A stretch of 64,000 nucleotides of DNA from Bdellovibrionales bacterium. Lineage in GTDB: Bacteria > Pseudomonadota > Alphaproteobacteria > UBA2400. Each line of letters begins with the position of its first letter. The stretch's first letter is position 1. The position numbers and the translations under genes are program-made. The DNA is taken from NCBI GenBank assembly GCA_039808765.1, contig JBDHTQ010000004.1:74287-138286 (forward strand). The letters are read 5' to 3'. This document shows positions 12,302 through 57,608 of this stretch, one piece after another. The notes under the pieces were generated by a model. That model had not been told where the DNA came from, did not search any database, and saw only the letters and a list, made by a program, of their open reading frames with translations.

Positions 12302-13414
12302 TTAAGCTGCCTGCTGTAAATTAAGCTTAAGACCTGCTTGCTGCATAAGGGTAAGTGCGTCACTTGTGTTTTTTTCTTCCGTTGCTTCAAAGGCAGAAGT
12401 GTTTTTGCCATTCAAACTGATCGGACAGTCTTGCACGATGGATTGAAGTGTTTGCGAGTCGGTTGCTGACTGTAATCTGCTGCCCAACAAGAATGTGGAG
12501 ACAGCCTGCGAATCACTTAACGAAGCTCCCGAGAAGCGGCACAGCTCTGCCAGTCCCTCGATTGGACCCGCCGACAAATGAACACCATTGACTCCTTGTG
12601 AGACCTCTTCAAGCCCAAGTTGTTCTTTTTGTTCAAGGAACAAACGGCGCAGACTGCCAGCATTGGCTTTTTCTGGATTTGTCGTGCCGATCAAATCGTT
12701 GCGCGCTACACTCCAGTCCGTGTTGGTCACGAGACGAAACGTGACGATGGAGCGGCCCGCCTGAACAAAATGCTCCAATTGACGGGGGTGAAACGCATTG
12801 ATGAGGTAGTGGGTTTGCCCATCCCATTTTACAGGAATGCAGTATGTGCCGCCCGCAAGTTTGGTGATTTGGGCATTTTGGCAAAGCAAGTCCAACGATT
12901 CTGCATTCATGAACGGAAATTTTCGCAAAAATTCAAAAGACCCCAGAGGCTTGGCTTCTTCTACGGTCATACCAAATTTTTCTTTGAAGGTGTTTTTAGC
13001 GGTGTCAGACAATGAAGCGAGCGCATTGTTGCTTAAGCGATTGATCACACCATAGTGAGACGCAATGGCTCCACTTTCCTTCATGTATTGAGCGCCAAGC
13101 AAGTTAACTTCGAGAATTGTCATGCCAAACTTTTCAAGGCTTGAAAAAACGAGATCAAGAACGGCAGAGAGGTTGGTTTTGCCGTTGGAAGGTTTGGTGA
13201 TTTCAGGTTTGATGAAAAAAAGCATTTCATTTTTATACGACTGCGGGGAAATGCCTGAGGATTGGTAAAGCGATACGCGACCGGTCGCGGTTGTTTGCGC
13301 GGCTGTTATCGCATTGATGATTTTGCTTTTGAGTTCTTGCACGATATATCTCCCAACATGCGATTTTCTTTGGCAAAAGGGGTTCCGTTGCCTGCGCTGT
13401 TTTAGCCTTACCAA
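12302..13414 (-). CDS. Atypical expanded nucleoside-diphosphate-kinase-fold protein. A more likely start is at 13225 (MLFFIKPE).
   Basis: NDK-like blocks are present: FFIKPE (NDK N-terminal strand), IGTTNPEKANAGSLRRLF (NDK Kpn-loop/GATNP region), and NGVHLSAGPIEGLAELCRF (the NDK catalytic His, NG[T/V]H.S). Non-NDK insertions of about 100 aa and a roughly 90-aa C-terminal extension bring the total to 300+ aa, versus about 140 aa for canonical Ndk. Confidence 0.45.
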   Translation of the reverse strand: MVRLKQRRQRNPFCQRKSHVGRYIVQELKSKIINAITAAQTTATGRVSLYQSSGISPQSYKNEMLFFIKPEITKPSNGKTNLSAVLDLVFSSLEKFGMTILEVNLLGAQYMKESGAIASHYGVINRLSNNALASLSDTAKNTFKEKFGMTVEEAKPLGSFEFLRKFPFMNAESLDLLCQNAQITKLAGGTYCIPVKWDGQTHYLINAFHPRQLEHFVQAGRSIVTFRLVTNTDWSVARNDLIGTTNPEKANAGSLRRLFLEQKEQLGLEEVSQGVNGVHLSAGPIEGLAELCRFSGASLSDSQAVSTFLLGSRLQSATDSQTLQSIVQDCPISLNGKNTSAFEATEEKNTSDALTLMQQAGLKLNLQQAA

Positions 13415-13557
13415 TGGCTATGTTCAAGCAAAAAAAGATAAAAAAATCAGCAAAAATCAGCTTGTATCTATTTTCAGAAATCAGTTGATTCCACGGGCGG
13501 CGGTAAGTTAGGATGCTTCGTATCGTATGGAAATAATTTTTTAAGTGGTGATTAAAC

Positions 13558-14076
13558 ATGGATATTAAACAGCGTAATCGCTATATGGATGGAATATGTT
13601 ATAGTTGGCTCGCCGGAGGTGTGCTTGGAGCAGGTTCGGTCTTGGCGAACTTTTGTTGTCTTGCCCAGCAGCTTGTTGGTCAAAGGGACCCTCCTGTGGG
13701 CGTATCGTTTGCGCTTATGGCGCTGGGGGGGGCGTGTCTTTACTCAGCCTACGCGCTTTGCTTTCTTCCCAAACGATTAAGAGAGGCCAAAATTGTTAAT
13801 ATTTTGCCTGATCCTTCAGCATGCAAATCTCTCCAACGCTATACATTTGGCTATCTGGCTGCCGCAGTCACTGTAGCTGCTCTCAGTGGCTGTAATTATG
13901 CGACAACCGGTCGTTTCTGGAATATATTTGACGCGCCGACCACTCCATTTCGTCATTTAGGGAATAATATTACACCATCCCTAATACCTGAACTGTCTAG
14001 GGTACTGTTCGCGAATAACGCCGATGGGGTCGATCCGAAAAAAACAATTGTTGCACGCTTGCCGTCAATGTCGTAG
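13558..14076 (+). CDS. Hypothetical membrane protein
   Basis: 172 aa with two or three hydrophobic helices. No family recognised. Confidence 0.3.
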   Translation: MDIKQRNRYMDGICYSWLAGGVLGAGSVLANFCCLAQQLVGQRDPPVGVSFALMALGGACLYSAYALCFLPKRLREAKIVNILPDPSACKSLQRYTFGYLAAAVTVAALSGCNYATTGRFWNIFDAPTTPFRHLGNNITPSLIPELSRVLFANNADGVDPKKTIVARLPSMS

Positions 14077-14138
14077 AAGGTTGGCGTTTTTTGTGTTCTA
14101 TGGATTTCTTTTTTTTATAATCAGGGTGAATAACTAAA

Positions 14139-14726
14139 ATGTTGGATACAGAGGGGCTGGCTGATTCGGGCAGCGGAGAATTAACGGCGAAGCCAGAAAA
14201 AAATGACTTAAGCCCTGGGTTTTCAATTGGCATGGCGGCCATAATGGCCGTTCTTTTTTTTACTAACTTTCTGAGCACTGCATTGGGATCGGTGGGAGTT
14301 TTTGCAAATTACCTTGCTCATAGCTTTACCCCGTTGAGTGGAGTGGCTAGCGCGCTGGGCTTGATCGGTAGCTCTGGTCTTGCAGTACATGCGGTGAGAA
14401 CGGCATTTGAGCCGGGGCTAAGAATAGAAGAGAAAGAACCCAAAATTCTAAGGAAAAAAATGATAAGGCGCGTTGCAGTGGTTGCTTTTGCAACGACCGG
14501 ACTTGCATTAGCTAACGGTATTAACATGGTTGAAGGGCATAGAGCGACATTATTCAATAACAAAACGCAACCTGTGATTCCGGCACCTGAGCGCTGTCCT
14601 CCAACAACATCAGTGGTGCCTCCTTCGTACGCTTTTTCAGTTTTTTTGAGTAGGAGTCGGCCTGTTGTATTGGTTCCTTCTGGGTTATTACAAAGACCGA
14701 CATCAGCAAGTCTGACATTGGCATGA
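14139..14726 (+). CDS. Hypothetical membrane protein
   Basis: 195 aa with several TM helices (MAAIMAVLFFTNFL..., GLIGSSGLAV..., VAVVAFATTGLALA). No family recognised. Confidence 0.3.
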   Translation: MLDTEGLADSGSGELTAKPEKNDLSPGFSIGMAAIMAVLFFTNFLSTALGSVGVFANYLAHSFTPLSGVASALGLIGSSGLAVHAVRTAFEPGLRIEEKEPKILRKKMIRRVAVVAFATTGLALANGINMVEGHRATLFNNKTQPVIPAPERCPPTTSVVPPSYAFSVFLSRSRPVVLVPSGLLQRPTSASLTLA

Positions 14727-14880
14727 AAGCTTTTGTACTCATAATATCGAATTTTATAGTGAGCCATACAATTTAGCGAACACGAAGATCAACTATCCGA
14801 TGATAGATCATCTTCGGTCTTAAGATGTTGTCACACTGCCAACCATCACCGGGATTTTACGGCGTGTTATTGCTGGTAAC

Positions 14881-44357: not shown

Positions 44358-45524
44358 GTGGTGCAGTCTTCATACATTTTTACAAGCGAATCCGTATCTG
44401 AAGGACATCCTGATAAGGTATGCGATCGCATATCCGATAGTTTGCTGGACCATTTTCTAACCGTTGATCCCAATGCGCGTGTGGCAATTGAAACATTAGC
44501 GACAACCAACACGGTTGTTCTTGCCGGGGAGGTTCGCAGCAATACCGAGGTTTCTCGCCAAACGCTTGAAAATGTAGCGCGTAAAGCGGTTAAGGAAATC
44601 GGCTACGAGCAGGAAGGATTCAGTTGGAAAACCCTTAATATTCAATCTTTTATTCACGCACAATCGGCAGATATTGCACGCGGCGTTGATGCGGCTCTTA
44701 ATAAGGACGAGGGGGCAGGGGATCAGGGCATTATGTTTGGTTATGCCTGTGATGAAACCCCCCAGCTCATGCCGGCTCCCCTTTTTTATGCACATAAAAT
44801 TCTGCAATTGTTGGCTGAGGCGCGCCATAGCCGTCTGGCTGATAAATTAGGGCCAGATGCCAAAAGCCAGGTCAGTATCGCGTATGAAAACAATCGGCCG
44901 ATGCGCTGTACCTCGCTTGTTCTTTCTACGCAACATGCAGGCAATCTTGAGCAGGATGAGGTTAAAGCGATTGTTCTGCCAGTACTTGAACAGGCCATTC
45001 CGCAAGGATGGATGTGCGATGAGCGCGCGTTATATATCAACCCAACCGGACGGTTTGTGATTGGCGGGCCGGATGGCGATGCCGGGCTAACGGGGCGCAA
45101 GATCATTGTCGATACTTATGGCGGGGCTTCACCGCATGGAGGCGGCGCTTTTTCAGGCAAAGACCCGACAAAGGTAGATCGCTCTGCCGCGTATGCGATG
45201 CGTTATTTGGCCAAGAATGTGGTGGCGGCTGGTTTGGCAAAACGTTGCTGTATTCAGGTGTCTTATGCGATCGGGGTGGCATATCCCTTATCCTTATACG
45301 TTAACACCTATGGCACAAATGAAGTCGACGAAGGGAAAATCGCAGAAACCCTCCGTGCCCTCATGAATTTAAGTCCACGCGGTATCCGTGAGCATCTAAA
45401 GCTCAATCGCCCCATCTACGCACGCACATCCGCTTATGGTCACTTTGGTCGTGAGCCGGAGGCTGATGGTGGCTTTAGTTGGGAAAAGCTGGATTTGGTC
45501 GATGCGCTAAAATCGGCATTTTAA
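44358..45524 (+). CDS. metK: S-adenosylmethionine synthetase MetK
   Basis: 388 aa. Conserved blocks: [37 protein letters not shown]...[23 protein letters not shown]. Confidence 0.9.
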
Positions 45525-47913: not shown

Positions 47914-47989
47914 GGGGCAATAGCTCAGTTGGTAGAGCGCTACATTCGCATTGTAGAGGTCGGGAGTTCGACTCTCCTTTGCTCCACCA
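47914..47989 (+). tRNA. tRNA-Ala (anticodon CGC)
   Basis: Cloverleaf folded by hand. The acceptor stem GGGGCAA/TTGCTCC carries the Ala identity pair G3:U70. D-arm GCTC-AGTTGGTA-GAGC; anticodon arm CTACA-TTCGCAT-TGTAG (anticodon CGC); T-arm GGGAG-TTCGACT-CTCCT; discriminator A; encoded CCA. Confidence 0.8.
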
Positions 47990-48145
47990 TTCCGTCTGGC
48001 CGGTCAGGCCTTTTTGCATATATCCCCTGCTTTTGTCCCGATTGAGGGGGTATTTCGCCACCACCGGGTCGGGGAGAGCGGACTTTCGGTCCTTAATCGG
48101 CCTCTTCGGGCTAGAATTCTCCGTTTCAGATTGTGTCCGACCCGC
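47958..48145 (+). repeat. Direct repeat copy 1 (attL-like). It covers the 3' 32 nt of tRNA-Ala plus about 155 nt downstream.
   Basis: About 190 bp that recurs with roughly 93% identity at 54279-54470. The two copies bracket a 6.3-kb insert. Confidence 0.6.
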
Positions 48146-48292
48146 GAGCGTATATGTGGCAGAATTATTCAAAATCACTTTGCGAAATGTGATCGACGCT
48201 CGCCGCGCGCGATTTATTTTAATACCGCCAATCACATCGCCTTACGCCCGGACATCTTCATATTCCTAGAGGCAAGTTTCACTACCTAATTT

Positions 48293-49300
48293 TTAAAGTT
48301 CTGGGAACATCACATCTGCCATATATGCTGCCACATTACGGGGTCGGCCGATGGCGGGCATGTGGTGCATGGCGAGACCGGGGTTGGCATTAATCTCGAT
48401 GATCGCATGGGTAACCGTAGTCTGATCGACGGTAATGTCCGGAGTAAGAAAATCGATCCCTACACAGGGAAGACCATCGAATGTCTGCAGTGCTCTTTTT
48501 GCAATGCTCAACACCGAGGAATGAATCACATCTGTCATGTCCGTTGATACGCCGCCTTGAGCTAGATTAGAAATGAGTCGCAGATAGATTTTTTCACCTT
48601 TATTCGGGACGTGATCAAAGTTCAGGCCCTTCTGCTGCAGGTAATTCAGCACGATATCGTCGAGGGCTATGGGGCAGAGGGCACTACCCTCTTTCTTTTT
48701 GACAGACTCCCGCCGGAGACTTTCCTGCTCAGCTAGAGCTCGGATATTGTTTTTGCCGTCACCTATTACATGCGCGGGATCGCGAAGTAGAACTGCGTAG
48801 TCTCCCTTGGTGGTGATGAAGATGCGGTACTCGTTGCCGTGAATATGCCGTTCGACGATAAAGAAAGATTGCTCTCCTGCCTGATGGAGAAGGGCGTAAA
48901 TTGCATCCTGCAGCTGTTCTCTGTTTTCGAGGCCGGAGCGAACTAACTCGCCATGCGAGCCGGTATTCGGTTTGACCACAAGCGGGAAGCCGATTTCGTC
49001 GCCATAATTCAGCGCTGCCTCGATATCGCCGCCCGTGAAGATTCGTCCCTCGGGCACATACAGCCCACTCTCTTCCAGAAGTAATTTAGCCGTGTGTTTG
49101 TCCGCCGCTAACGAGGACGGCAGATAAGGCACGATTTTGCTAGCCCGGTCGAGCAGATACTCAGTCGTTCCTTTATAAGACACCCGCATAAGCTCGAGAT
49201 TGTAGTCGAGCGAAGTGACATTCGCCCCGCGGCGCACGAGTTCTTCAACCAGGAGACGCTGATTGGTATGAAGACAGCTGAGATCAAGTGTACTCGTCAC
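48293..49300 (-). CDS. ATP-grasp ligase (RimK / LysX / graspetide-ligase-like)
   Basis: 335 aa with a GTG start. ATP-grasp blocks present: FPLVVKPNTGSHGELV, HIHGNEYRIF, IIEINANPG. Confidence 0.65.
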   Translation of the reverse strand: MTSTLDLSCLHTNQRLLVEELVRRGANVTSLDYNLELMRVSYKGTTEYLLDRASKIVPYLPSSLAADKHTAKLLLEESGLYVPEGRIFTGGDIEAALNYGDEIGFPLVVKPNTGSHGELVRSGLENREQLQDAIYALLHQAGEQSFFIVERHIHGNEYRIFITTKGDYAVLLRDPAHVIGDGKNNIRALAEQESLRRESVKKKEGSALCPIALDDIVLNYLQQKGLNFDHVPNKGEKIYLRLISNLAQGGVSTDMTDVIHSSVLSIAKRALQTFDGLPCVGIDFLTPDITVDQTTVTHAIIEINANPGLAMHHMPAIGRPRNVAAYMADVMFPEL

Positions 49301-49417
49301 TTACTGCGGACGAGGCCGACCAGTGACGGGACGCGGATCAACGTCAAGTTTGCGCGGCGAACGGCCACGGGCAGGTCGGCTGCGATAATTTTCAGTCGGA
49401 TTATTATCTTCAGACAT
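49301..49417 (-). CDS. Candidate 38-aa Pro/Arg-rich peptide gene (possible RiPP precursor/substrate), below the 60-aa ORF-track cutoff
   Basis: Translated by hand: MSEDNNPTENYRSRPARGRSPRKLDVDPRPVTGRPRPQ*. An SD-like GAGGTG lies 5 nt upstream of the ATG. The TAA stop abuts the GTG start of the ATP-grasp gene, and the ORF fills the gap between the methyltransferase and ATP-grasp genes. Confidence 0.4.
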   Translation of the reverse strand: MSEDNNPTENYRSRPARGRSPRKLDVDPRPVTGRPRPQ

Positions 49418-49476
49418 TTGGCACCTCACTCTACAGGCAATTCTAGCATCTGGCAAACGGGTTTTGCAAGCAGAAA

Positions 49477-50154
49477 TTATCCTTCAAAAATAAGCACGTT
49501 ATGACCGATTTCAGCAGTGTTAACTTTTTGGCCGACCGCTTCGCCCCATATACCGCCGATGATGTGGCGAGCATGGGTAATATCCCTGAACTGAAAGCTC
49601 GTTGCCAGCCGGGCGGTGATCCGAAAGCCGGCTACGTCCTGAAGCCAGGCGTTATAAGCGATTGAAACGGGGATTTTTTCTCTTATCTCTTCAAACATGC
49701 CGCTGGCATCGTTCTCAACCAGAAAAATTCTACCGCCGGGATGTAAAGAGGCGCGGACGCAGTTCAGAATATCTAGTCGCTTCGGCTCACTGCTAATGGT
49801 ACCAAGCATCCAGCAGGCGAGCGCGATATCGTATTTTCCGAGGTTGGGATTTTCAGCAGCATCGGCGTGAATGAATGAGATGTTTCTAAAGTTTCGGGTC
49901 TGCGCCCGCGCTATCGTCAGCTGCGCCTCAGCAGCGTCTAGCCCACAGATATGCTGCGCATGGGGAGCAAAAAGTCTTAGATATTTTCCGGTGCCGCAGC
50001 CGAGATCAAGCATGGTCTTGTTTTCGATGTGGGGTAATAGCCAATTAAAGACCTGGCCTCGGGCATCTTCAGCTGCGCAAAACTCTTCATAAAGATTGGC
50101 CTTCTGGTAATAGACTTCTGATTTTTCTTGAAGGTTGTTCTTGGAATAGCTCAT
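49477..50154 (-). CDS. Class I SAM-dependent methyltransferase (start trimmed to MSYSKNN, an ATGA overlap with the upstream stop)
   Basis: SAM-binding motif I LDLGCGTGKYL plus a motif II/III acidic loop. Length about 225 aa. Confidence 0.65.
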   Translation of the reverse strand: MSYSKNNLQEKSEVYYQKANLYEEFCAAEDARGQVFNWLLPHIENKTMLDLGCGTGKYLRLFAPHAQHICGLDAAEAQLTIARAQTRNFRNISFIHADAAENPNLGKYDIALACWMLGTISSEPKRLDILNCVRASLHPGGRIFLVENDASGMFEEIREKIPVSIAYNAWLQDVAGFRITARLATSFQFRDITHARHIIGGIWGEAVGQKVNTAEIGHNVLIFEG

Positions 50155-52565
50155 GCTTTCTTTTCCCATAGCAGAATGATGTCTTTGTTGTTGTCTTCCC
50201 ACGCGCTTTGAATCTCGATTTCCGTGTAAACGCCGTCGGCGTAATGACCGAAAGCTTTATGGCGAGCTTCCGAGTCGTTGATCCGGCTGCGCACGTTTGA
50301 TCCATTCATGTTGTAGGCGTCAAAGACGTAGCCGAGAATCATCTGACCGCCGGGCCGAAGGCGTTTAGCCATTGGCGTAACGATCTTCGACCGGAACTCT
50401 TCAAGATAATCACTGTCATACATGTGGTGCGCGTAATCGCTGAGGTTGGAGAGGAGGATGGTGTCGTAGCTGTCTTCCGTCTGTGCCATCTCTTCAGCTG
50501 TAAGGGTATTCCATTTCACCTCTAGCTTATGGCAAGCCGTCTGTGCTTTTGCATAGGCATCTATATTGGCGAGATAGGGATTGTTGAGAGCAATCCGCTC
50601 GCCTGACTGCTGTTTGCGGAACAAAGCCGAATGGCGCATAGCTGAGCCATCCATGTTGAAGAATTTGTAGGCGCTATCAAAGAAGTATCTGGCAGAAAGA
50701 CTTAATCCATCCCTGCAGATTTGATATCTATCGTGCTCCATAAGCAAGAGGAAATTCTGGAACTCTGAAATTCCGAAAGTATGGAGAGCTGCCAGCTTGA
50801 GTTCAGCCATATATTTTGCAAGCAGGTTGACGTCAAAATTTACAACGCTCTTCGCCCCAGCCATACAGACGTTGATCAATTGATCGCCCGATGCACCGAC
50901 GGTCAGGACGTCCTTGCCAGAAAAGTCGAGAAAGTTAAGATACCCGCCGATATTCTCTGTTGCGAAGGCATAGACAGGGCTCGCCTTTGAATAGCGCCCT
51001 CCGCGCTGAAGATTGGCGATCAGATCGCCTTCGAACAAGGAAGCGATGAATTCGGCCTCGGCAAATTGGGGAACGATTTGCATCGGGCAGCGATCAAGTC
51101 CTGATCGGGTAAGGCCAGTCACTAAATGCCGGAATGAAGTGTTCTCACGGTCCTCAAGAATTTCCCGTAGGGTGTGATCATGTAGCGTCTTTTCTGCGAT
51201 ATAAGTCGGGCGGCGCTCCGCCACCCACGTGCAGGGTGAAATACGCCCTTTATGGTCGATAAAGAGGAACCGCTCTCCACCAGGGCAGGCGCCGCAGCCC
51301 TCCTTCACCGTTTCGGCGAAGTTGCCGTTGACTTTGATGCGGCCCGAGAATTCCGCGCGAAGCGCCTCGATCTCAGCCTTCATTTCGCTGATGGGACGGT
51401 CACACAACATGGCTGGACGGTTGCGCATGCGTCCGACCGGTTCCATCAGGGAATAAATCACCTCATTGCAACCAAGCTCAAAACAGAATTCGGTGATTGC
51501 CCGCATTTCGTTCTGATTGTTCCGGTAAAGAACGCAACCAATACGCACATAAATTCCGTTGTCTACAAGATGTTTTAAGCCATTAATCGTCGGTGTATAA
51601 GTTCGCTTTCCACGTATTGCTTCCTGCAGCTCTTGCGTATGCCCGTCGAGGCTGACATGAACCATATCAAGCTTCAGAGAAGCTAGTTCCTGCACCACCT
51701 CTGCCGTGATGAAGGCGGCGTTTGTCGAGAGGTCCGTTCGGAAGTTCTGCTGGCGAGCATACTTCAGAATATCCATAAGATCGGGTCGCGTAAACGGCTC
51801 GCCCCCCGTGATCTTGAGATGCGTGAACCCGCATTCCTTCAGACCATCGATTGTCTCGTAAATTTTGGCCGTGGAAAGTTCATCGGCCTGCGGGCGCGAG
51901 GTCGAGCTGAAAATGCAGTAACGGCAGCCGTAGTTGCAGGTATTAGTTATTTCCCAGATGACTCGGCCGCCATGGCGGGGAATGCGGAAGAGGCAGAACG
52001 ACGTTGCAGGATCGTAATCATCGGCGCAGAGTTCATAGGCTTTCTCTATATTATCGTCGATCAACCCAGCGGTTGTATCCACAAGTTGATATGGTTTGCC
52101 ATATTGTTCAAGAAGAGTGATTATCTCTGACGTTGGCATTTGCCTCTTTAAGCGCGCATCAATCTGCGCGTTCGAAAGATCTCCGCCTTGGAGGCGCGCC
52201 ATGCGCTCAATATCATTGCAATGCACGACGATGACACCGTCGACCATATCGAGATATCCATCCTCGATAAGTCGCGCCCATTCTAGGACGACAAGACCTT
52301 CCGCAGCCTGGACTTGCCGTTGCGCCTCGGTGCGCGTAGACTCGCTTACTTTCTCCCACAAAGCCTCAAAATGATCGGGGTCGGAGCCACCGATAGTGCG
52401 GCGTATCGTGTCGATGGAAACAAGAGTGGCTCCCACTTTTTTGACCAGACGATCCGCCAGCGTCGTTTTTCCCGCTCCCATGCCGCCCGTAATGCCGATG
52501 ACGCGTGAGGCCATTCTAATATTCCCAGCCAAGGCCATAGCGCAGCGGGCAGAGCGACACGACAT
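50151..52565 (-). CDS. Three-part fusion protein: a P-loop kinase-like N-terminus (dephospho-CoA-kinase-like), a radical SAM core with a SPASM/twitch-like Cys-rich extension, and a C-terminal domain of unknown function
   Basis: The N-terminal VIGITGGMGAGKTTLADRL is a CoaE/AAA-kinase P-loop. The radical-SAM cluster motif is TNTCNYGCRYCIF (CxxxCxxC). An auxiliary Cys region follows (CGACPGG...ISPCTW). A further roughly 280-aa domain brings the total to 804 aa. Confidence 0.55.
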   Translation of the reverse strand: MSCRSARCAMALAGNIRMASRVIGITGGMGAGKTTLADRLVKKVGATLVSIDTIRRTIGGSDPDHFEALWEKVSESTRTEAQRQVQAAEGLVVLEWARLIEDGYLDMVDGVIVVHCNDIERMARLQGGDLSNAQIDARLKRQMPTSEIITLLEQYGKPYQLVDTTAGLIDDNIEKAYELCADDYDPATSFCLFRIPRHGGRVIWEITNTCNYGCRYCIFSSTSRPQADELSTAKIYETIDGLKECGFTHLKITGGEPFTRPDLMDILKYARQQNFRTDLSTNAAFITAEVVQELASLKLDMVHVSLDGHTQELQEAIRGKRTYTPTINGLKHLVDNGIYVRIGCVLYRNNQNEMRAITEFCFELGCNEVIYSLMEPVGRMRNRPAMLCDRPISEMKAEIEALRAEFSGRIKVNGNFAETVKEGCGACPGGERFLFIDHKGRISPCTWVAERRPTYIAEKTLHDHTLREILEDRENTSFRHLVTGLTRSGLDRCPMQIVPQFAEAEFIASLFEGDLIANLQRGGRYSKASPVYAFATENIGGYLNFLDFSGKDVLTVGASGDQLINVCMAGAKSVVNFDVNLLAKYMAELKLAALHTFGISEFQNFLLLMEHDRYQICRDGLSLSARYFFDSAYKFFNMDGSAMRHSALFRKQQSGERIALNNPYLANIDAYAKAQTACHKLEVKWNTLTAEEMAQTEDSYDTILLSNLSDYAHHMYDSDYLEEFRSKIVTPMAKRLRPGGQMILGYVFDAYNMNGSNVRSRINDSEARHKAFGHYADGVYTEIEIQSAWEDNNKDIILLWEKKA

Positions 52566-53910
52566 TCATATTTGGTGTGCGGTACCGAAGTGCCTCCACG
52601 TTCATAAATTCATCCGGGTGGCGGACCACAGCATAGCCACCCCCGCTCAGTTCTGCTGCGATGCCCTCGACGGCTTCGCGCACCCGCTCGGAGCTTACCT
52701 TGGCTAGGTTCTGGTTCTGCATGCCCTGATGAATGTATTGCGTCGAAGGAATGTCGGAATAATCCTCATAAATTCTGCTACCCATGCGGATGGCCAGATG
52801 GTGCAGCCGCACTTCTTCAGTGCGAAGTTCCAGAATGAGATCGGCCGTGCGTTGGAGTTCATCCTCAGTTGATCCGGGCAGATCCATGATCCAGCTTGTC
52901 CGCACGCGGAAACCCATCTCTCGTGTGCGATTCACGATGCGGCGCACATCGTCCGCATTGACCTTCTTGTGGATAGAGTTTAGAAGCCGATCATCGCCGG
53001 ATTCGACGCCATAGTGGATCCAGCGGAATCCCGCCTCATGCATGGTTTCCATCATCTCTTCTTCGAACAGGTTGAGCGAGCCGAGGCACCCCATTGCGAC
53101 TTTTATCTTGCGCGCGATAAGTTCTTCGCAGATATCCTTCATACGTTTGCGTCCGACGGTTGCGTTATCGTCGAGGAACAAAATTTTCTTCGCGCCGCAT
53201 TCATTGACGAGATACTCAATCTCATTTGCGATGGCTCCAGCACTGCGTCCGCGCCAGTTGCCCCAGAATCCGGGGACATGGCAGAAATCGCATTTCATGT
53301 GGCATCCACGGCTGGAAAGGATGGTACGTACATCGATATAGGCATCAAGGTCAACGAGGCTGCGTTTAGCGATGGGAAGCGTGTCGAGATCGAACGGCTG
53401 GCTTGGGCGATCCGTGACGTGAATGTCTAGACTTCCGTCCAGATAGCAAATCCCCGGTATTTGCTTGAGCGAATTCTGAGACCATGTTGGTACCGCAAGT
53501 AGCGCGCTCAGAGCCAGCTCCATCTCATGCCGTATCAGAACATCTACAGGCGTCCCGCTGAAAAGAAGCTGCTCAGGCTTATAGGTCGCCGTTTTCCCAC
53601 CAACGATGACCTTTGCCCCCCGCGCCCTAGCCTGATCAGCGATGTTCCGAACAGCCTCAAGCGTCCCATCGCAATGAAGAGGGATGTGATAATCATAGAT
53701 GATAATGGCGATATCATATGCAAAATCGGTCATATGATTTTTGAAATCTTCCGGTCGGATCTGGCGGACATCCATATCCAACAGTCGCACTTCATGGCCG
53801 AGCACCGCGACAAAGGATGCCGTAACCAAAACATCGATTGGCTCGATCAGGATACCCTTGGAACTGAACGGCACATTTGGCGGATTGATGATCAATGCCT
53901 TCATTTCCAA
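52516..53910 (-). CDS. B12-binding-domain radical SAM protein (class B rSAM)
   Basis: An N-terminal Rossmann-like B12-binding region (MKALIINPP...) is followed by SSRGCHMKCDFCHV (CxxxCxxC) and a TIM-barrel radical-SAM core. Length 464 aa. Confidence 0.7.
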   Translation of the reverse strand: MEMKALIINPPNVPFSSKGILIEPIDVLVTASFVAVLGHEVRLLDMDVRQIRPEDFKNHMTDFAYDIAIIIYDYHIPLHCDGTLEAVRNIADQARARGAKVIVGGKTATYKPEQLLFSGTPVDVLIRHEMELALSALLAVPTWSQNSLKQIPGICYLDGSLDIHVTDRPSQPFDLDTLPIAKRSLVDLDAYIDVRTILSSRGCHMKCDFCHVPGFWGNWRGRSAGAIANEIEYLVNECGAKKILFLDDNATVGRKRMKDICEELIARKIKVAMGCLGSLNLFEEEMMETMHEAGFRWIHYGVESGDDRLLNSIHKKVNADDVRRIVNRTREMGFRVRTSWIMDLPGSTEDELQRTADLILELRTEEVRLHHLAIRMGSRIYEDYSDIPSTQYIHQGMQNQNLAKVSSERVREAVEGIAAELSGGGYAVVRHPDEFMNVEALRYRTPNMNVVSLCPLRYGLGWEY

Positions 53911-54278
53911 ATGTTTACCTCAATTCTTAAAAGATGGGGCAGACTAACATATCTCTCTTCGAGAAATCCACTTTAATATATTGAACTCAAGCCTTGTTTT
54001 CTGGCCTCGCGTCCGAACCTACGGACCTCCAAAATAGCCATCATTTACCCCGGTTAAGGTATAGCACCGAGTGCTATTAACATCAAGGTAGTATACCTGT
54101 GTGTTTGGGTCATTCTGAGATCAGGTTTCTCACCTGAATCTCTCCCTTGCAGAGGAGAGTCCTGCAATCGGTATCCTGCATCGTTGCAGAGCAACATTTC
54201 TGTTATGAAATGACATAATATCAGCTGGTTAGGCCATATCATGACAGGAATTAGCCATGGTTGGGCATATAGTTGCTG

Positions 54279-54470
54279 GTCGGACCGGGAGTTCGACTCT
54301 CCTTTGCTCCACCATTCCGTCAGGGCGGTCAGGCCATTTTGCATATATCCCCTGCTTTTTCCCCGATTGAGGGGGTATTTCGCCACCACCGGGTCGGGGA
54401 GAGCGAACTTCCCGCCCTTAATCGGCCTCTTCGGGCTAGAATTCTCCGTTTCAGATTGTGTCCGACCCGA
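54279..54470 (+). repeat. Direct repeat copy 2 (attR-like). It consists of the tRNA-Ala 3' fragment plus the downstream segment.
   Basis: It matches 47958-48145, including GGGAGTTCGACTCTCCTTTGCTCCACCA. Only the 3' end of the tRNA is duplicated, as expected for a tRNA-targeted insertion. Confidence 0.6.
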
Positions 54471-54735: not shown

Positions 54736-55479
54736 TTGGAAAGAATTGCCTGCGATAGAGAAATGATTACCCTGCCTCCAGCGCATGAGTTTGCGAAGTT
54801 GGAGACGAAGGTGTTTCGCACACTTAAAGATGCACACTTGGCAATGCGTGATATTGAGGAGCTGCCATTTTTTAAAATGTCCGATGAAAAGTTGCGGCCT
54901 GATATTAGAAAGGTAGTAAAAGTAATTCTAGATTTGACGCCCGAGCTAGTTAAGTTTGTCCAAGCGCAGTTTGACAGCAAAATTCTACATTTGTCGCTTG
55001 GCGGGTCGGCTGTTTTTAGGAGCAACCCAGCTGACTTGGATTTTAATTTAATCGTTAGTGGGTCTCATTTTTCATATCGGGAATATGCTTTTAGTCAAAT
55101 TGGGATACGAGGCGCGCCGCAAGATATCCTTGATCAATTTTCTTTTATTGCGTTTGGCGCAGATAATCTCGCTGGCACTGCTGCATGTGAGGATAGTATT
55201 TTAAACAAAGGATATTTGCACCAAGACATCATAAGCAGAGAGTTGATAATTTATGATATGCGGAATTTGCTTCTCTACGGACATCCAGTCACGGTTTCTC
55301 CAGGAGTAGACTTGATACTGAAGCGTGTGATGACTGGTATTGGCTTTGCTCGCCGGGGGCTTACAGGAGAGGTCGTGCGCTACACGACTCCAGAGAGAAA
55401 AATAAGAAAAGCTGTTTCAAGAATTGAAGAGGCGGAAGCTATCATCAAGGAGCTTATTCGCCGTGGTGCATCAGGCTAA
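54736..55479 (+). CDS. Nucleotidyltransferase-fold (Pol-beta superfamily) protein of unknown function
   Basis: hG[GS]x9-13Dh[DE]h signature present: HLSLGGSAVFRSNPADLDFNLIV. Length 247 aa (the start may be at MITLPPAH). Confidence 0.35.
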   Translation: MERIACDREMITLPPAHEFAKLETKVFRTLKDAHLAMRDIEELPFFKMSDEKLRPDIRKVVKVILDLTPELVKFVQAQFDSKILHLSLGGSAVFRSNPADLDFNLIVSGSHFSYREYAFSQIGIRGAPQDILDQFSFIAFGADNLAGTAACEDSILNKGYLHQDIISRELIIYDMRNLLLYGHPVTVSPGVDLILKRVMTGIGFARRGLTGEVVRYTTPERKIRKAVSRIEEAEAIIKELIRRGASG

Positions 55480-56543
55480 CAGGCCGGCCCCTTGCTTTTA
55501 ATACTGGCTATTGATTGTTCGATTACAACTGACATATCGCTGGAATTAATAGCTGATAACCTGTTGTAGAGAGTTGCCAAGACTGATTGATCTTTCTGAA
55601 AGCGCAAACCCATCCTTCTGGAATAGGTCAGTAGTTCTTTTTGTCTTGAAGAGTAGCTCCAGTTTTTGCCATCAAGACTAAGTAGCGAAAGCAAGCGAAG
55701 AATTTCTGGCTCACTGACTATGCTTCGGATAGCAGGATCTGCGAGCACCTCATTTGCAGGCATCTTTGACAGCCCAATATAGCCGAGTGGTGGTAAGCTT
55801 AGATTCCGGAATCCAAAATTGAATGGTGCGACCTTATTAAGAGTGCCAAGTCCAACAAACGCCCACGCGCGATCATGAGACAGCTTCTCAGCTAGGTATA
55901 TGGGAAATAGGGCATTGCTCACTCTAGGGTCAAGTTTAAGGTCATTTAAGCCAATTGAATTGAGTGGAACTCCGGTCTTTCTCTTTTTGCTAATGAGAGC
56001 TTGCTGCGGCATAGAGGCAAGCTGACCTGACCAGTTAGATGGTTTGTTGATAATAGGCAGATATAGTGATAATTCATTTGCATGATGGGCGAGCGGCATA
56101 CTTAAAATATTGCGCGTTTGATGAGCGGGGGTGATTGGTTTTCCGCAGTTCGCGCAATCAACGGGTGCAGGCGCTGTAGCAAAGGCCTGAGGGCCGTCAC
56201 AGCTGCTACAAACTAGAATTTTTTGCTGGCTGAGGGTGATCGTACCACTCTCAATCGCGCGCATGAGTTGAACTCCCACCCAACTATGAAAAGCTGGATC
56301 GTTATCAAAGTAATGAGGCTTGTCTTTGCTGTACATGCTATAAGCACGCAGTGTGTCTTCATAGCGCTTAAAGGGATCATCAATTCCGGTTTTAAGTCCG
56401 GTATTCCACAGAGCGTGGCCAGTTAGTCCCGGGATATGTAATTCGTTAAAAATATCAGTTAGTACAACAGGGAGCAGTCTCCCTGGAGCAGAGATGGATA
56501 AGTTAGCCATTCCCACTGGCGAGGTTGTTATTATGGTTTTCAT
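55476..56543 (-). CDS. Hypothetical protein with a C-x2-C...C-x2-C zinc-ribbon-like segment
   Basis: 355 aa. The segment LVCSSCDGPQAFATAPAPVDCANCGKP suggests a Zn ribbon. There are weak class-I-synthetase-like hints (HIPG...GH, LSKM) but no confident family. The gene is AT-rich. Confidence 0.3.
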   Translation of the reverse strand: MKTIITTSPVGMANLSISAPGRLLPVVLTDIFNELHIPGLTGHALWNTGLKTGIDDPFKRYEDTLRAYSMYSKDKPHYFDNDPAFHSWVGVQLMRAIESGTITLSQQKILVCSSCDGPQAFATAPAPVDCANCGKPITPAHQTRNILSMPLAHHANELSLYLPIINKPSNWSGQLASMPQQALISKKRKTGVPLNSIGLNDLKLDPRVSNALFPIYLAEKLSHDRAWAFVGLGTLNKVAPFNFGFRNLSLPPLGYIGLSKMPANEVLADPAIRSIVSEPEILRLLSLLSLDGKNWSYSSRQKELLTYSRRMGLRFQKDQSVLATLYNRLSAINSSDMSVVIEQSIASIKSKGPAC

Positions 56544-56623
56544 TATGCCCCCATGGATTTTTAATCACATTTAAGTGAGCAAGGTCAACGTTGAATTGTA
56601 GGTGGCCATCCGTTTTTGTATGA

Positions 56624-57547
56624 TCATAACTTAATAAATCTGGAGATTTCTAATTTAAGTAATTTGTCCTGTAGTGGGCTGCCATGTCCATAATCGGGCA
56701 CGATGAACAGTTTTGAGTTATTCATCGCTTTATGAAGAGCCCACGCCTGCTCAGGCGGGCAGACAAAATCGAGGCGATTATGAACAATGAGAGTGTGTTT
56801 ATCTTTGATGATGTCGATGTTATCCAGAATTTGGTTGTCACAGAGGAAGAAATTTTCTTTTTCATAATGCATACGAATCCTGAAATTATCTAGATGTGCG
56901 CCACTGGGTTCGTTCTGGCTAATTTCTGGCGATAGGCTGCCAAGTTCATGCTCATAGCTGCCGTATTTGTTCAGTGCTGAGATGCATTGTTGTTTGTCAC
57001 CTGATAATGCTAGAGCGGCGTAATATTGCTGTGCGTTCGTATTTTTCGGCAGATTAGATGTAACGTTCTCCATAAGGTCAGGATAGAAGCGACCAGAATC
57101 GTGTGCGATCCAATCAATGTCCACGCGACGGGCAAGAAAAGCTTGGGTGATAATGATCTTATTGACCAGCGCTGGGTAAGTTTCTGCAAAGACTAAAGCG
57201 AGCGTTGCGCCCCACGAACAGCCGTAAATTACTGCGTGATCAATGTTGAGCTTATCAAGAAGCCTTTTTGCATCGTGAACGGTATGTTGTGTTGTGTTTT
57301 CCTCTAATTTGCCGGTTGGTAGCGATTTTCCGCGACCACGTTGATCGAACATTATGATACGACAGACATTCAAATTAAAAGCATTTGCATGTTTTGGTTT
57401 GCTAAAAGAGCCAGGGCCACCATGAAAGGAGAGAATTGGCAGTCCATTTGGATTCCCAAACTCATGAAAGTAGACCAAATGTCCATCCTCTTCGGGAAGA
57501 TAGCCTGTATTGAACGGTTTGTGTTCTCTGCTTATAAAGGTAAACAT
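56624..57547 (-). CDS. Alpha/beta hydrolase, proline-iminopeptidase-like
   Basis: HGGPGS oxyanion motif and the nucleophile elbow GCSWG. The N-terminus (YLPEEDGHLVYFHEFGNPNGLPILSFHGGPG) matches the prolyl aminopeptidase family. Confidence 0.6.
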   Translation of the reverse strand: MFTFISREHKPFNTGYLPEEDGHLVYFHEFGNPNGLPILSFHGGPGSFSKPKHANAFNLNVCRIIMFDQRGRGKSLPTGKLEENTTQHTVHDAKRLLDKLNIDHAVIYGCSWGATLALVFAETYPALVNKIIITQAFLARRVDIDWIAHDSGRFYPDLMENVTSNLPKNTNAQQYYAALALSGDKQQCISALNKYGSYEHELGSLSPEISQNEPSGAHLDNFRIRMHYEKENFFLCDNQILDNIDIIKDKHTLIVHNRLDFVCPPEQAWALHKAMNNSKLFIVPDYGHGSPLQDKLLKLEISRFIKL

Positions 57548-57608
57548 GGATTATTCCAATATTATAGTACGATGAAGAAATATACTAACGACGATGAAAA
57601 AGTCAAAG

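Follow-up and report, generated by a model that had tools for sequence, protein, structure and literature searches.

We investigated a 64,000-nt stretch of a Bdellovibrionales genome assembly (hereafter the window), in which a 5.6-kb cassette of five genes lies beside a tRNA-Ala gene, between two long direct repeats. The insert is probably a dedicated, horizontally acquired modification cassette that acts on a 38-aa motif peptide encoded within it, the single chemical steps being much less certain. Its genes encode a B12-dependent radical S-adenosylmethionine (SAM) enzyme, a three-domain fusion protein, a class I methyltransferase, the 38-codon open reading frame (ORF), and an ATP-grasp ligase. 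Seven parts were found to be co-inherited across phyla: the B12-dependent radical SAM enzyme, a CoaE-like kinase, a twitch-type radical SAM domain, a BtaA-family domain, the methyltransferase, the ATP-grasp ligase, and the motif protein.

A recurrent gene cassette and its motif protein

A search with the fusion protein returned 92 relatives in four architectures, namely kinase-radical SAM-DUF3419, radical SAM-DUF3419, kinase-radical SAM, and forms with a fused methyltransferase. By scanning one genome per species with an alignment of these relatives we obtained 80 loci, and the cassette parts were scored by searching the six-frame ORFs of all loci with the window proteins. The radical SAM and DUF3419 parts were present in 75 loci, and all six enzyme parts, in one orientation, in 55; most loci short of six parts were cut by contig ends or, in Peribacteria, contained genes that read through only in genetic code 25. 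The cassette was present in alphaproteobacterial metagenome-assembled genomes (MAGs), Patescibacteria, Peribacteria, and Peregrinibacteria, in Woese-, Pace-, and Nanoarchaeota and Methanosarcinales, and in gut Clostridia, Bacilli, Mollicutes, and Gastranaerophilales (Melainabacteria). The gene order was DUF3419-methyltransferase-ORF-ATP-grasp at the end of the cassette in Proteobacteria and candidate phyla radiation (CPR) bacteria, and DUF3419-ORF-ATP-grasp-methyltransferase in Firmicutes and archaea. The fusion patterns varied between loci (kinase with radical SAM, radical SAM with DUF3419, all three, or all three with the methyltransferase), which argues that the parts serve one pathway. When 1.84 billion cluster representatives were searched exhaustively with the C-terminal domain of the fusion protein, 62 matched at E ≤ 1e-30 and, with the limit relaxed to E ≤ 1e-10, 654 did. 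The top matches were 600-800-aa fusions or stand-alone proteins of ~300 aa, as in the cassettes, and by these counts the module is rare but old or highly mobile. The cassette is self-contained, as no further gene family is conserved across phyla in the flanks and DNA homology ends at the cassette edges.

The small ORF adjoining the ligase gene was the most telling component. An ORF just upstream of the ATP-grasp gene was present in 62 loci, and its product ranged from 38 to 488 aa and could not be aligned between lineages. Nonetheless, 60 of these 62 proteins carried at least two copies of the motif [SGTMA]-E-[SDNT]. In an unbiased count of k-mers occurring at least twice per protein, ESR ranked first (47 of the 62 loci), with GES, SES, GESR (28 loci), and SESR (22 loci) next. 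The Glu of the motif was invariant, the preceding residue was Gly or Ser in 92% of instances, and the following residue was Ser, Asp, Asn, or Thr. The motif took lineage-specific forms: GESR or SESR in Clostridia, Bacilli, and DPANN archaea; SENL or GENL together with GESP in alphaproteobacterial MAGs; GESG or GESE in CPR bacteria; and SED or GED in the clade of the window. It was often terminal, with 39 of the 62 proteins starting MSE- or ME- and several CPR proteins ending -GE or -GES. Of 18 motif proteins compared with composition-preserving shuffles, 14 were enriched in the motif (P<0.05), the window peptide among them (P=0.0045). Loci with an atypical gene order (L010, L007, and L012-L014) encoded the motif protein elsewhere in the cluster, so that a motif ORF, rather than being absent or disrupted in orthologous clusters, was found in essentially every complete locus. 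No Pfam or NCBIfam family matched the motif proteins.

The preliminary description of this DNA had singled out the 38-codon ORF as Pro/Arg-rich and as having its own Shine-Dalgarno sequence. The latter was borne out (Table 1), whereas the key feature proved to be two copies of [S/G/T]-E-[D/N/S], at S2-E3-D4 and T8-E9-N10. The peptide contains no Cys and ends in RPRPQ. Homologues of 38-106 aa were recognized in loci L083, L084, L085, and L001, with E3 and E9 invariant; the closest of them, at 57-106 aa, contained two to four additional GEDL copies. In the alignment of the window peptide with its close relatives, M1, E3, D4, N6, E9, R12, P15, and R17 were invariant. These invariant positions and the two motif copies indicate that the 38-mer is a short but genuine member of the family.

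Further features were seen in subsets of the motif proteins. A C-terminal Trp was recurrent, 13 of the 62 proteins ending in -ESRW (L032, L036, L048, L054, L057, L064, L073, and others), and the close relatives of the window peptide in L084 and L085 end in -RSPRPW instead of -RPRPQ. In DPANN archaea and Methanosarcinales (L018, L021, L030, L042, L077, L010, and L038), a conserved N-terminal globular region of ~100 aa (LKxTYGSxDIxxLVDFxxxAP...HVYG...) precedes C-terminal GESR repeats, whereas the Firmicutes proteins have a conserved helical or coiled-coil region instead; neither region matched Pfam or NCBIfam. A PqqA-like E-x-x-x-Y spacing was considered and dropped, as it occurred in some motif proteins only and inconsistently.

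Individual loci showed peculiarities of their own. In the Peribacteria loci L012, L013, and L014 the cassettes are fragmented under code 11, and their genes read through under code 25 (UGA = Gly), and the motif protein lies upstream of the gene for the B12-dependent radical SAM enzyme, not beside the ligase gene. The best match among species representatives, in a Micavibrio MAG (L072, 8604-10946), is 76% identical over residues 18-268, and its cassette apparently breaks off after the start of the radical SAM domain, though the contig goes on. In the two loci closest to the window (L083, 922-5092; L084, 2422-6598), the cassette is preceded by four extra co-oriented genes, for a PhyH-type dioxygenase, a 378-aa unknown protein, an AAA_33 kinase, and a glycosyltransferase, which are absent from the window and may encode additional tailoring enzymes. 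Directly downstream of the L084 cassette (12382-14843), DUF2726, Abi_alpha, and T5orf172/MUG113 genes form a defence-island-like neighbourhood.

The cassette enzymes and rival assignments

The catalytic motifs were intact in the translations of all operon enzymes, comprising both CX3CX2C motifs, the Walker A motif, two SAM-binding loops, and the Lys and E-x-N of the ATP-grasp ligase. In the ligase these last two stand in VVKPNTGSHG (ATP-binding Lys) and IIEINANPG (Mg site). Its top NCBIfam matches were cyanophycin synthetase (9e-67), the GshB-like half of GshAB (2e-49), and N-acetylglutaminylglutamine synthetase (3e-45), and RimK, LysX, and Ddl models matched at 1e-13 or weaker. Among solved structures, CphA1 (7lgm, 7.6e-45), CphA2 (7ta5, 3.6e-40), and GshAB (3ln7, 7.2e-35) were closest. 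By these matches the ligase is placed in the cyanophycin-synthetase/GshB clade, and the RimK-type label given to it earlier was abandoned, RimK being a weak secondary match. The protein is not a cyanophycin synthetase, since it stands alone at 335 aa without the N and Mur-ligase-like M domains; against the cyanophycin synthetase model it scored 226 bits (cut-off 877) and aligned to positions 209-474 of 871, corresponding to the G domain only. CphA1, GshB, and LysX activate a carboxylate as an acyl-phosphate and then form an amide. This ATP-grasp chemistry is what the window ligase would have in common with the CphA1 G domain, CphA2, and the GshB-like domain of GshAB, its best sequence matches; unlike CphA1 and GshAB, it lacks M, N, and GshA domains and is always paired with the motif protein.

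The small peptide beside an ATP-grasp gene had been taken as the hallmark of a graspetide, that is, a peptide synthesized ribosomally and modified post-translationally (RiPP) in which the ligase would close macrocycles through side-chain esters or amides of the 38-mer, with tailoring left to the remaining enzymes. The peptide gene does adjoin the ligase gene, and the 38-mer contains Ser, Thr, and Lys together with Asp and Glu that could be linked in principle. However, the ligase matched the CphA G domain, CphA2, and GshAB at 1e-45 to 1e-27 and no graspetide ligase at E ≤ 1e-3, a PDB sequence search returning only CphA1, CphA2, GshAB, Ddl, and LysX/RimK chains. Moreover, the conserved unit is a three-residue motif instead of a spaced donor/acceptor core, there is no leader, and a survey paper on graspetides describes no such cassette. 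The likeness to microviridin-type graspetides thus lies in the peptide beside an ATP-grasp gene, which is here accompanied by five further enzyme activities, and we regard a graspetide as highly improbable.

The ligase also gave weak LysX signals (NCBIfam 1.9e-10, with 40 bits against a cut-off of 276; PDB 1uc8, 1.5e-4; the LysX pre-ATP-grasp domain, E 0.09), which bear on a carrier or scaffold function resembling LysW/LysX or the pearlins. The motif protein would then be a multivalent handle, to which the ATP-grasp ligase would attach an amino-acid-like block, at the Glu gamma-carboxylates or at a C-terminal Glu; the other enzymes would elaborate this block into a metabolite or cofactor, to be cleaved off at the end. 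An ATP-grasp ligase, a small protein with an acidic motif, and a kinase together follow the logic of LysX/LysW/LysZ, in which the Glu carboxylate of a small protein is likewise the ligation point presumed here and a kinase step follows. In addition, several motif proteins end in ...GE or ...GES, comparable to the ...GE of LysW, the closest relatives of the ligase handle free amino acids, and several motif copies would increase the yield per protein. LysW-type carriers are ~55 aa long, with an N-terminal zinc finger and a C-terminal EDWGE. The window peptide, by contrast, has neither zinc-finger Cys nor an EDWGE tail, the motifs are mostly internal or N-terminal, the kinase is of the P-loop CoaE type and not an amino-acid kinase, and the ligase is far nearer to CphA/GshB (1e-66) than to LysX. 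No homologue of LysZ, LysY, LysJ, or LysK was found in the cassette or its flanks, leaving the carrier with no LysK-like release hydrolase and no other conserved extra gene, and the LysW/LysX pathway has no counterpart of the radical SAM and SAM-alkyl transfer steps. A carrier of this kind is unlikely in our judgement.

The fusion protein spans 50151-52514 on the minus strand. It had been described as an 804-aa protein from an ORF beginning at 52565; the fusion of a kinase, a radical SAM domain, and a third domain stands, but that start is probably too early. The true start is probably the ATG at 52514, which gives 787 aa, because homologues begin right after the upstream stop codon and the public protein call (P0001) is also of 787 aa. 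The N-terminal kinase domain scored 52.5 bits with Pfam CoaE (cut-off 27) and 44.7 bits with the NCBIfam dephospho-CoA kinase model TIGR00152 (cut-off 65.6), suggesting a CoaE-family fold rather than a CoaE orthologue.

The middle domain matched Pfam Radical_SAM (1.6e-27) and, among PDB entries, PqqE (4.6e-14), SkfB (7.7e-10), and tetraether lipid synthase (2e-6); its nearest relatives were AhbD, MftC, NirJ, PqqE, and SkfB. The SPASM-like Cys extension noted earlier is present but partial; its 20.5 bits fall just short of the cut-off (21.5), and the match extends over positions 1-52 of the 67 in the profile. In the alignment of homologues it comprised C427-x12-G-x4-C445 and C493, and beyond the SAM cluster only C191, C427, C445, and C493 were invariant, with C344 nearly so. 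The CX2CX5CX3C block was absent, and with it the full seven-Cys SPASM arrangement with two auxiliary clusters; from this Cys pattern the domain is classed as twitch-like.

The same domain underlies a further reading, a nucleotide-modifying defence system in which a viperin-like radical SAM enzyme works with a kinase on a genomic island. PADLOC models of prokaryotic viperins (pVip, 'viperins associated with kinases') matched the domain at 81.6 bits, the relative L084 lies beside Abi_alpha, T5orf172, and DUF2726 genes, and the window copy is on a tRNA-linked island. However, the viperin model NF038283 gave 65.9 bits against a cut-off of 180, AhbD, MftC, and PqqE models scored higher, and viperins have no counterpart of the auxiliary-cluster Cys region in this domain. 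The reading would account for neither the motif protein nor the remaining five components, and the cassette was absent from plasmids, phages, and IMG/VR. We rejected the defence reading as generic radical SAM similarity, and consider it extremely unlikely.

For the C-terminal domain, which had been left as unknown, a profile search identified DUF3419 (PF11899; 35.8 bits, above the Pfam gathering threshold of 28.2), and most homologues of the fusion protein also bear a precomputed PF11899 match. Papers on betaine lipids assign to the DUF3419 family BtaA, which is the SAM:diacylglycerol 3-amino-3-carboxypropyl transferase. AlphaFold modelled the domain confidently (pLDDT 96); the fold is of the class I SAM-binding type and contains a helical insert, and Foldseek retrieved only distant generic class I methyltransferases (template-modelling score, TM, ~0.4). 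As in BtaA/BtaB, the DUF3419 domain stands next to, and in some loci is fused with, a class I methyltransferase; here, in contrast to BtaA/BtaB, it is fused to a radical SAM domain and a kinase, matches the profile partially, and has no lipid context. The stand-alone methyltransferase matched Pfam Methyltransf_25/12/23/11, and its closest solved relatives were N-methyltransferases (ToxA, 1.6e-11; phosphoethanolamine N-methyltransferase, 1.7e-8).

The remaining enzyme combines an N-terminal B12-binding domain (PF02310, 42.3 bits, cut-off 32.1) with a radical SAM core (PF04055, 92.8 bits) whose CX3CX2C motif is CHMKCDFC. This architecture assigns it to the B12-dependent radical SAM class, and cobalamin binding is predicted. 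Its NCBIfam matches included BchE, HpnJ, and the glutamine C-methyltransferase of methyl-coenzyme M reductase (QCMT), at 1e-33 to 1e-36 and all below cut-off, and also HpnR and TIGR04072, which like HpnJ are hopanoid or lipid enzymes. The QCMT family model gave 114.6 bits (cut-off 360), and the BchE and HpnJ models did equally well or better. The best solved structure was PDB 9ccb (1.5e-16), the B12-dependent radical SAM enzyme QCMT (PMC12931638), which methylates a Gln inside a polypeptide, a residue chemically near the invariant Glu of the cassette.

These assignments also bear on a pathway that needs no peptide, whose product could be a modified di- or tripeptide serving as a solute, a compound derived from a nucleoside or cofactor, or a betaine-type lipid head group, with the ORF an unrelated disordered protein or a regulator. 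The ligase resembles GshB, N-acetylglutaminylglutamine synthetase, and cyanophycin synthetase; the substrates of CoaE and BtaA are a nucleotide ribose and diacylglycerol, respectively; the B12-dependent enzyme matches HpnJ, HpnR, and TIGR04072, and the fused radical SAM domain matches tetraether lipid synthase at 2e-6; and the cassette has no leader, RiPP recognition element (RRE), or protease. However, such a pathway leaves unexplained why an ORF with the repeated Glu motif, and with little else in common, is kept in ~60 loci across two domains of life, usually coupled to the ligase gene, and no lipid or nucleotide pathway genes co-occur. We consider it quite improbable. No operon enzyme reached the curated cut-off of any defined small-molecule pathway model in NCBIfam, in agreement with the earlier suggestion of a peptide-modification pathway that matches no curated family; since all curated equivalog matches fell far below cut-off, no cassette protein appears to belong to a defined pathway.

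The insert at the tRNA-Ala gene

The insert was examined together with its boundaries (Table 1). ARAGORN located the only tRNA gene of the window, a tRNA-Ala(CGC), which the Rfam tRNA model supported at 68.3 bits. Direct repeats of roughly 190 bp had been noted around the insert, and a repeat finder confirmed one pair, of 184 nt each, 95% identical and spaced 6,325 nt apart. In the pairwise alignment the identity begins abruptly in the T-arm of the tRNA and stops equally abruptly 155 nt beyond the tRNA 3' end, with a terminator-like hairpin of the tRNA gene inside the left copy (47994-48009). The window contains exactly two copies of the 28-nt segment from the tRNA 3' end, where chance would give none, and the right repeat gave only a weak tmRNA/tRNA-like Rfam match (54263-54314). 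No second direct repeat of at least 40 nt, no further repeat copy, and no composite island was found anywhere in the window.

Table 1. Coordinates of the insert features within the window
Feature	Position	Strand	Remarks
tRNA-Ala (CGC)	47914..47989	+	Intact gene (ARAGORN, Rfam); its final 29 nt open the left direct repeat
Left direct repeat, attachment-site (attL)-like	47961..48144	.	184 nt; tRNA T-arm and 3' end, hairpin, downstream sequence
ATP-grasp ligase	48293..49300	-	335 aa; GTG start abuts the TAA of the small ORF
Small ORF	49301..49417	-	MSEDNNPTENYRSRPARGRSPRKLDVDPRPVTGRPRPQ (38 aa), the predicted substrate; ATG preceded by GAGG at a distance of 6 nt
Class I SAM-dependent methyltransferase	49477..50154	-	225 aa; motif I LDLGCGTG; ATG overlaps the stop codon of the fusion protein gene
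Fusion protein, C-terminal DUF3419 (BtaA family) domain	50154..51065	-	Class I SAM-binding fold, helical insert, VLTVGASGD loop
Fusion protein, middle domain	51066..52010	-	Radical SAM core (CNYGCRYC) with partial SPASM/twitch-like Cys region (Pfam, PDB, alignment)
Fusion protein, N-terminal CoaE-family P-loop kinase	52011..52514	-	GITGGMGAGKTT; Pfam CoaE, NCBIfam
B12-binding radical SAM enzyme	52516..53910	-	462 aa from ATG 53904 or 464 aa from TTG 53910
Operon leader, non-coding	53911..54285	-	Presumed promoter region; unique to this insert, without homology to other cassettes
Right direct repeat, attR-like	54286..54469	.	184 nt; starts with the copy of the tRNA-Ala 3' end, without the tRNA 5' half

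All supported coding capacity between the repeats is on the minus strand, and the single, translationally coupled operon proposed earlier was upheld by its junctions. With the fusion start at 52514, the B12-dependent radical SAM gene and the fusion gene are joined as TAG-A-ATG, the fusion and methyltransferase genes overlap as ATGA, and the small ORF meets the ATP-grasp gene as TAA-GTG. The leader contains one sigma-70-like match (54242-54215), a number not above chance. A second sigma-70-like match (TTGCAA-18 nt-TAGAAT, with TG) lies within the operon at 49440-49469 on the minus strand, shortly before the small ORF, and might serve as an internal promoter raising expression of the substrate, the number of matches in the region again not being above chance.

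DNA homology to related cassettes of other organisms was confined to 48293-53904 and excluded the flanks and repeats, so the cargo corresponds exactly to the operon. The G+C content was 0.51-0.54 in the insert, 0.46-0.47 to its left, and 0.42-0.45 to its right, and other parts of the window also reached ~0.5. The repeat layout, the sharp edges of the cargo, and the modestly raised G+C together are what integration at the 3' end of a tRNA gene classically leaves behind. The cassette would have entered beside tRNA-Ala by recombination across the 184-nt segment that includes the tRNA 3' end, and now has no integrase of its own. Domain searches bore out the earlier remark that the insert has no integrase, and also found none in the 8 kb to its right (54.4-62.5 kb). 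The repeat, at 184 nt, is also long for an att core. These two features could be accounted for by homologous segments recombining with each other, by loss of the integrase, or by mobilization in trans. A tRNA gene within 1 kb of the cassette was found in a few other loci (L004, L042, and L060); most had none. No true member of the family was found in PLSDB, GenBank phages, or IMG/VR, where the searches gave only generic PqqE- or MoaA-like radical SAM matches.

Neighbouring genes were also recorded. metK, encoding SAM synthetase, lies 2.4 kb left of the insert (44358-45524, plus strand), and the insert encodes four SAM-consuming activities; this proximity is probably a coincidence of housekeeping gene order. 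To the right (54736-62475) are ORFs of 247, 355, 484, 209, 230, and 242 aa without Pfam match, together with genes for an alpha/beta hydrolase (56624-57547) and a sulfotransferase (57609-58433), and the G+C content drops to 0.35-0.42 at 58-62 kb. This DNA may be further foreign or effector-like material.

Proposed function and relation to known systems

How the cassette might act on the motif protein can be proposed from the nearest relatives of each enzyme. The ATP-grasp ligase would phosphorylate a carboxylate and couple an amine to it; the target would be the gamma-carboxylate of the motif Glu (E3 and E9 in the window peptide), since this is the only invariant carboxylate, and the product would be a Gln-like isopeptide or branch. 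The B12-dependent radical SAM enzyme may C-methylate the same Glu or the group attached to it, as its nearest solved relative methylates a protein Gln; a Gln-like branch would suit such an enzyme. Because the kinase, twitch radical SAM, and BtaA-like domains are fused, the trifunctional enzyme would act in consecutive steps on one site: hydrogen-atom abstraction by the radical SAM domain could result in a cross-link, an oxidation, or a decarboxylation, the BtaA-like domain could transfer an alkyl group from SAM (3-amino-3-carboxypropyl or methyl), and the kinase could phosphorylate a hydroxyl group, which is unlikely to be the side chain following the Glu, because that position can be Asn or Asp. 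The stand-alone methyltransferase would methylate an amine, given that its nearest relatives are N-methyltransferases. As neither a signal peptide nor a leader, RRE, protease, or exporter belongs to the module, its product may stay in the cell as a modified peptide or protein, or be released by housekeeping peptidases.

In its fuller form, which we judge to be evenly balanced between right and wrong, the proposal is a previously unrecognized modification system of Bacteria and Archaea that turns the Glu of the repeated [S/G]-E-[S/D/N] motifs of a disordered protein dedicated to it into a new residue with many modifications. These would comprise an amide branch, C-methylation, alkylation from SAM (possibly with 3-amino-3-carboxypropyl), N-methylation, and phosphorylation, and the system would be enriched in small-genome symbionts (CPR bacteria, DPANN archaea, and gut Mollicutes-like Firmicutes). 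Alternatively, each motif could be used for making and then releasing several copies of a Glu-derived cofactor-like molecule, by analogy with pyrroloquinoline quinone (PQQ) and mycofactocin. In a bolder variant, suggested by the fusion of a CoaE-like kinase to the radical SAM domain, the latter would attach a 5'-deoxyadenosyl group to the peptide, phosphorylation of the 3'-OH of this group would fall to the kinase, and a peptide decorated with a nucleotide would result.

Several observations weigh against a peptide-modifying cassette. As to the substrate, the window peptide has only two motif copies, and statistics for individual proteins can be weak (P 0.06-0.24 in 4 of the 18 tested), the motif being of three residues in low-complexity sequence. 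Across the 62 motif proteins no conserved leader was found, the repeated short motif alone being common to the lineages, and profile searches gave no match to an RRE or PqqD, not even with a limit of E ≤ 10 for the unassigned regions. Clustering of the flanking ORFs revealed no further family shared across phyla, whether protease, exporter, or hydrolase. As to the enzymes, the known roles of the CoaE and BtaA families lie in the metabolism of nucleotides and lipids and not in peptide chemistry, and the substrates of the nearest relatives of the ligase are small peptides, joined at the alpha-carboxylate of their C-terminus, and not side chains of proteins. The DUF3419 match covers only profile positions 11-133 of 385, the N-terminal third, all NCBIfam matches of the cassette enzymes lie far below curated cut-offs, and each chemical step is inferred from family resemblance. 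As to the acquisition, the closest relatives of the neighbouring FolD in metagenomes are only 53% identical and not syntenic, so that no empty site was found for comparison. The suggestion that this is a RiPP pathway thus holds in so far as a gene-encoded peptide is clustered with modifying enzymes, and fails for the leader, RRE, protease, and exporter; since these classical features were not found, a RiPP is one of several outcomes, besides a modified protein and a carrier-built metabolite.

Dedicated modification of the motif peptide would have partial parallels elsewhere. Triceptides are defined by three-residue cyclophane motifs, and HxsABCD is a bioinformatically defined system with His-Xaa-Ser repeats. 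As these systems are usually described, they likewise pair a small protein containing several copies of a short motif with a SPASM/twitch radical SAM enzyme, and recognition seems to be motif-based; the HxsC4 model weakly matched the radical SAM domain of the cassette (1.9e-14). The motifs differ, being aromatic-X-X or H-X-S there and [S/G]-E-[S/D/N] here, and the cassette adds a B12-dependent radical SAM enzyme, a CoaE-like kinase, a BtaA-family domain, an N-methyltransferase-like enzyme, and a CphA/GshB-type ATP-grasp ligase. The diphthamide and wybutosine pathways offer an analogy for the later steps, with transfer of 3-amino-3-carboxypropyl from SAM followed by methylation. In kind, the cassette belongs with gene-encoded peptide modification systems, and it is new in its motif, its ligase clade, its kinase-radical SAM-BtaA fusion, and its host range. 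No curated model, open-access paper, or preprint was found to describe the cassette, the motif, or the enzyme combination, although an account in a subscription journal is possible.

If the proposed reading is correct, the cassette would represent a new family of ribosomal peptide or protein modification with a new recognition motif, bringing together enzymes not seen in combination before: a CphA/GshB-type ligase, a QCMT-like B12-dependent radical SAM enzyme, a radical SAM-CoaE fusion, and a BtaA-like transferase. It would also provide the first non-lipid role for the DUF3419/BtaA family and the first peptide-linked role for a CoaE-type kinase. The cassette is small and self-contained, and heterologous expression is thus directly feasible as a test. 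Finally, it is among the few multi-enzyme biosynthetic modules common to CPR bacteria, DPANN archaea, and reduced-genome gut Firmicutes, and because these carriers have shed most of their biosynthesis, its product likely matters for their host-dependent lifestyle.

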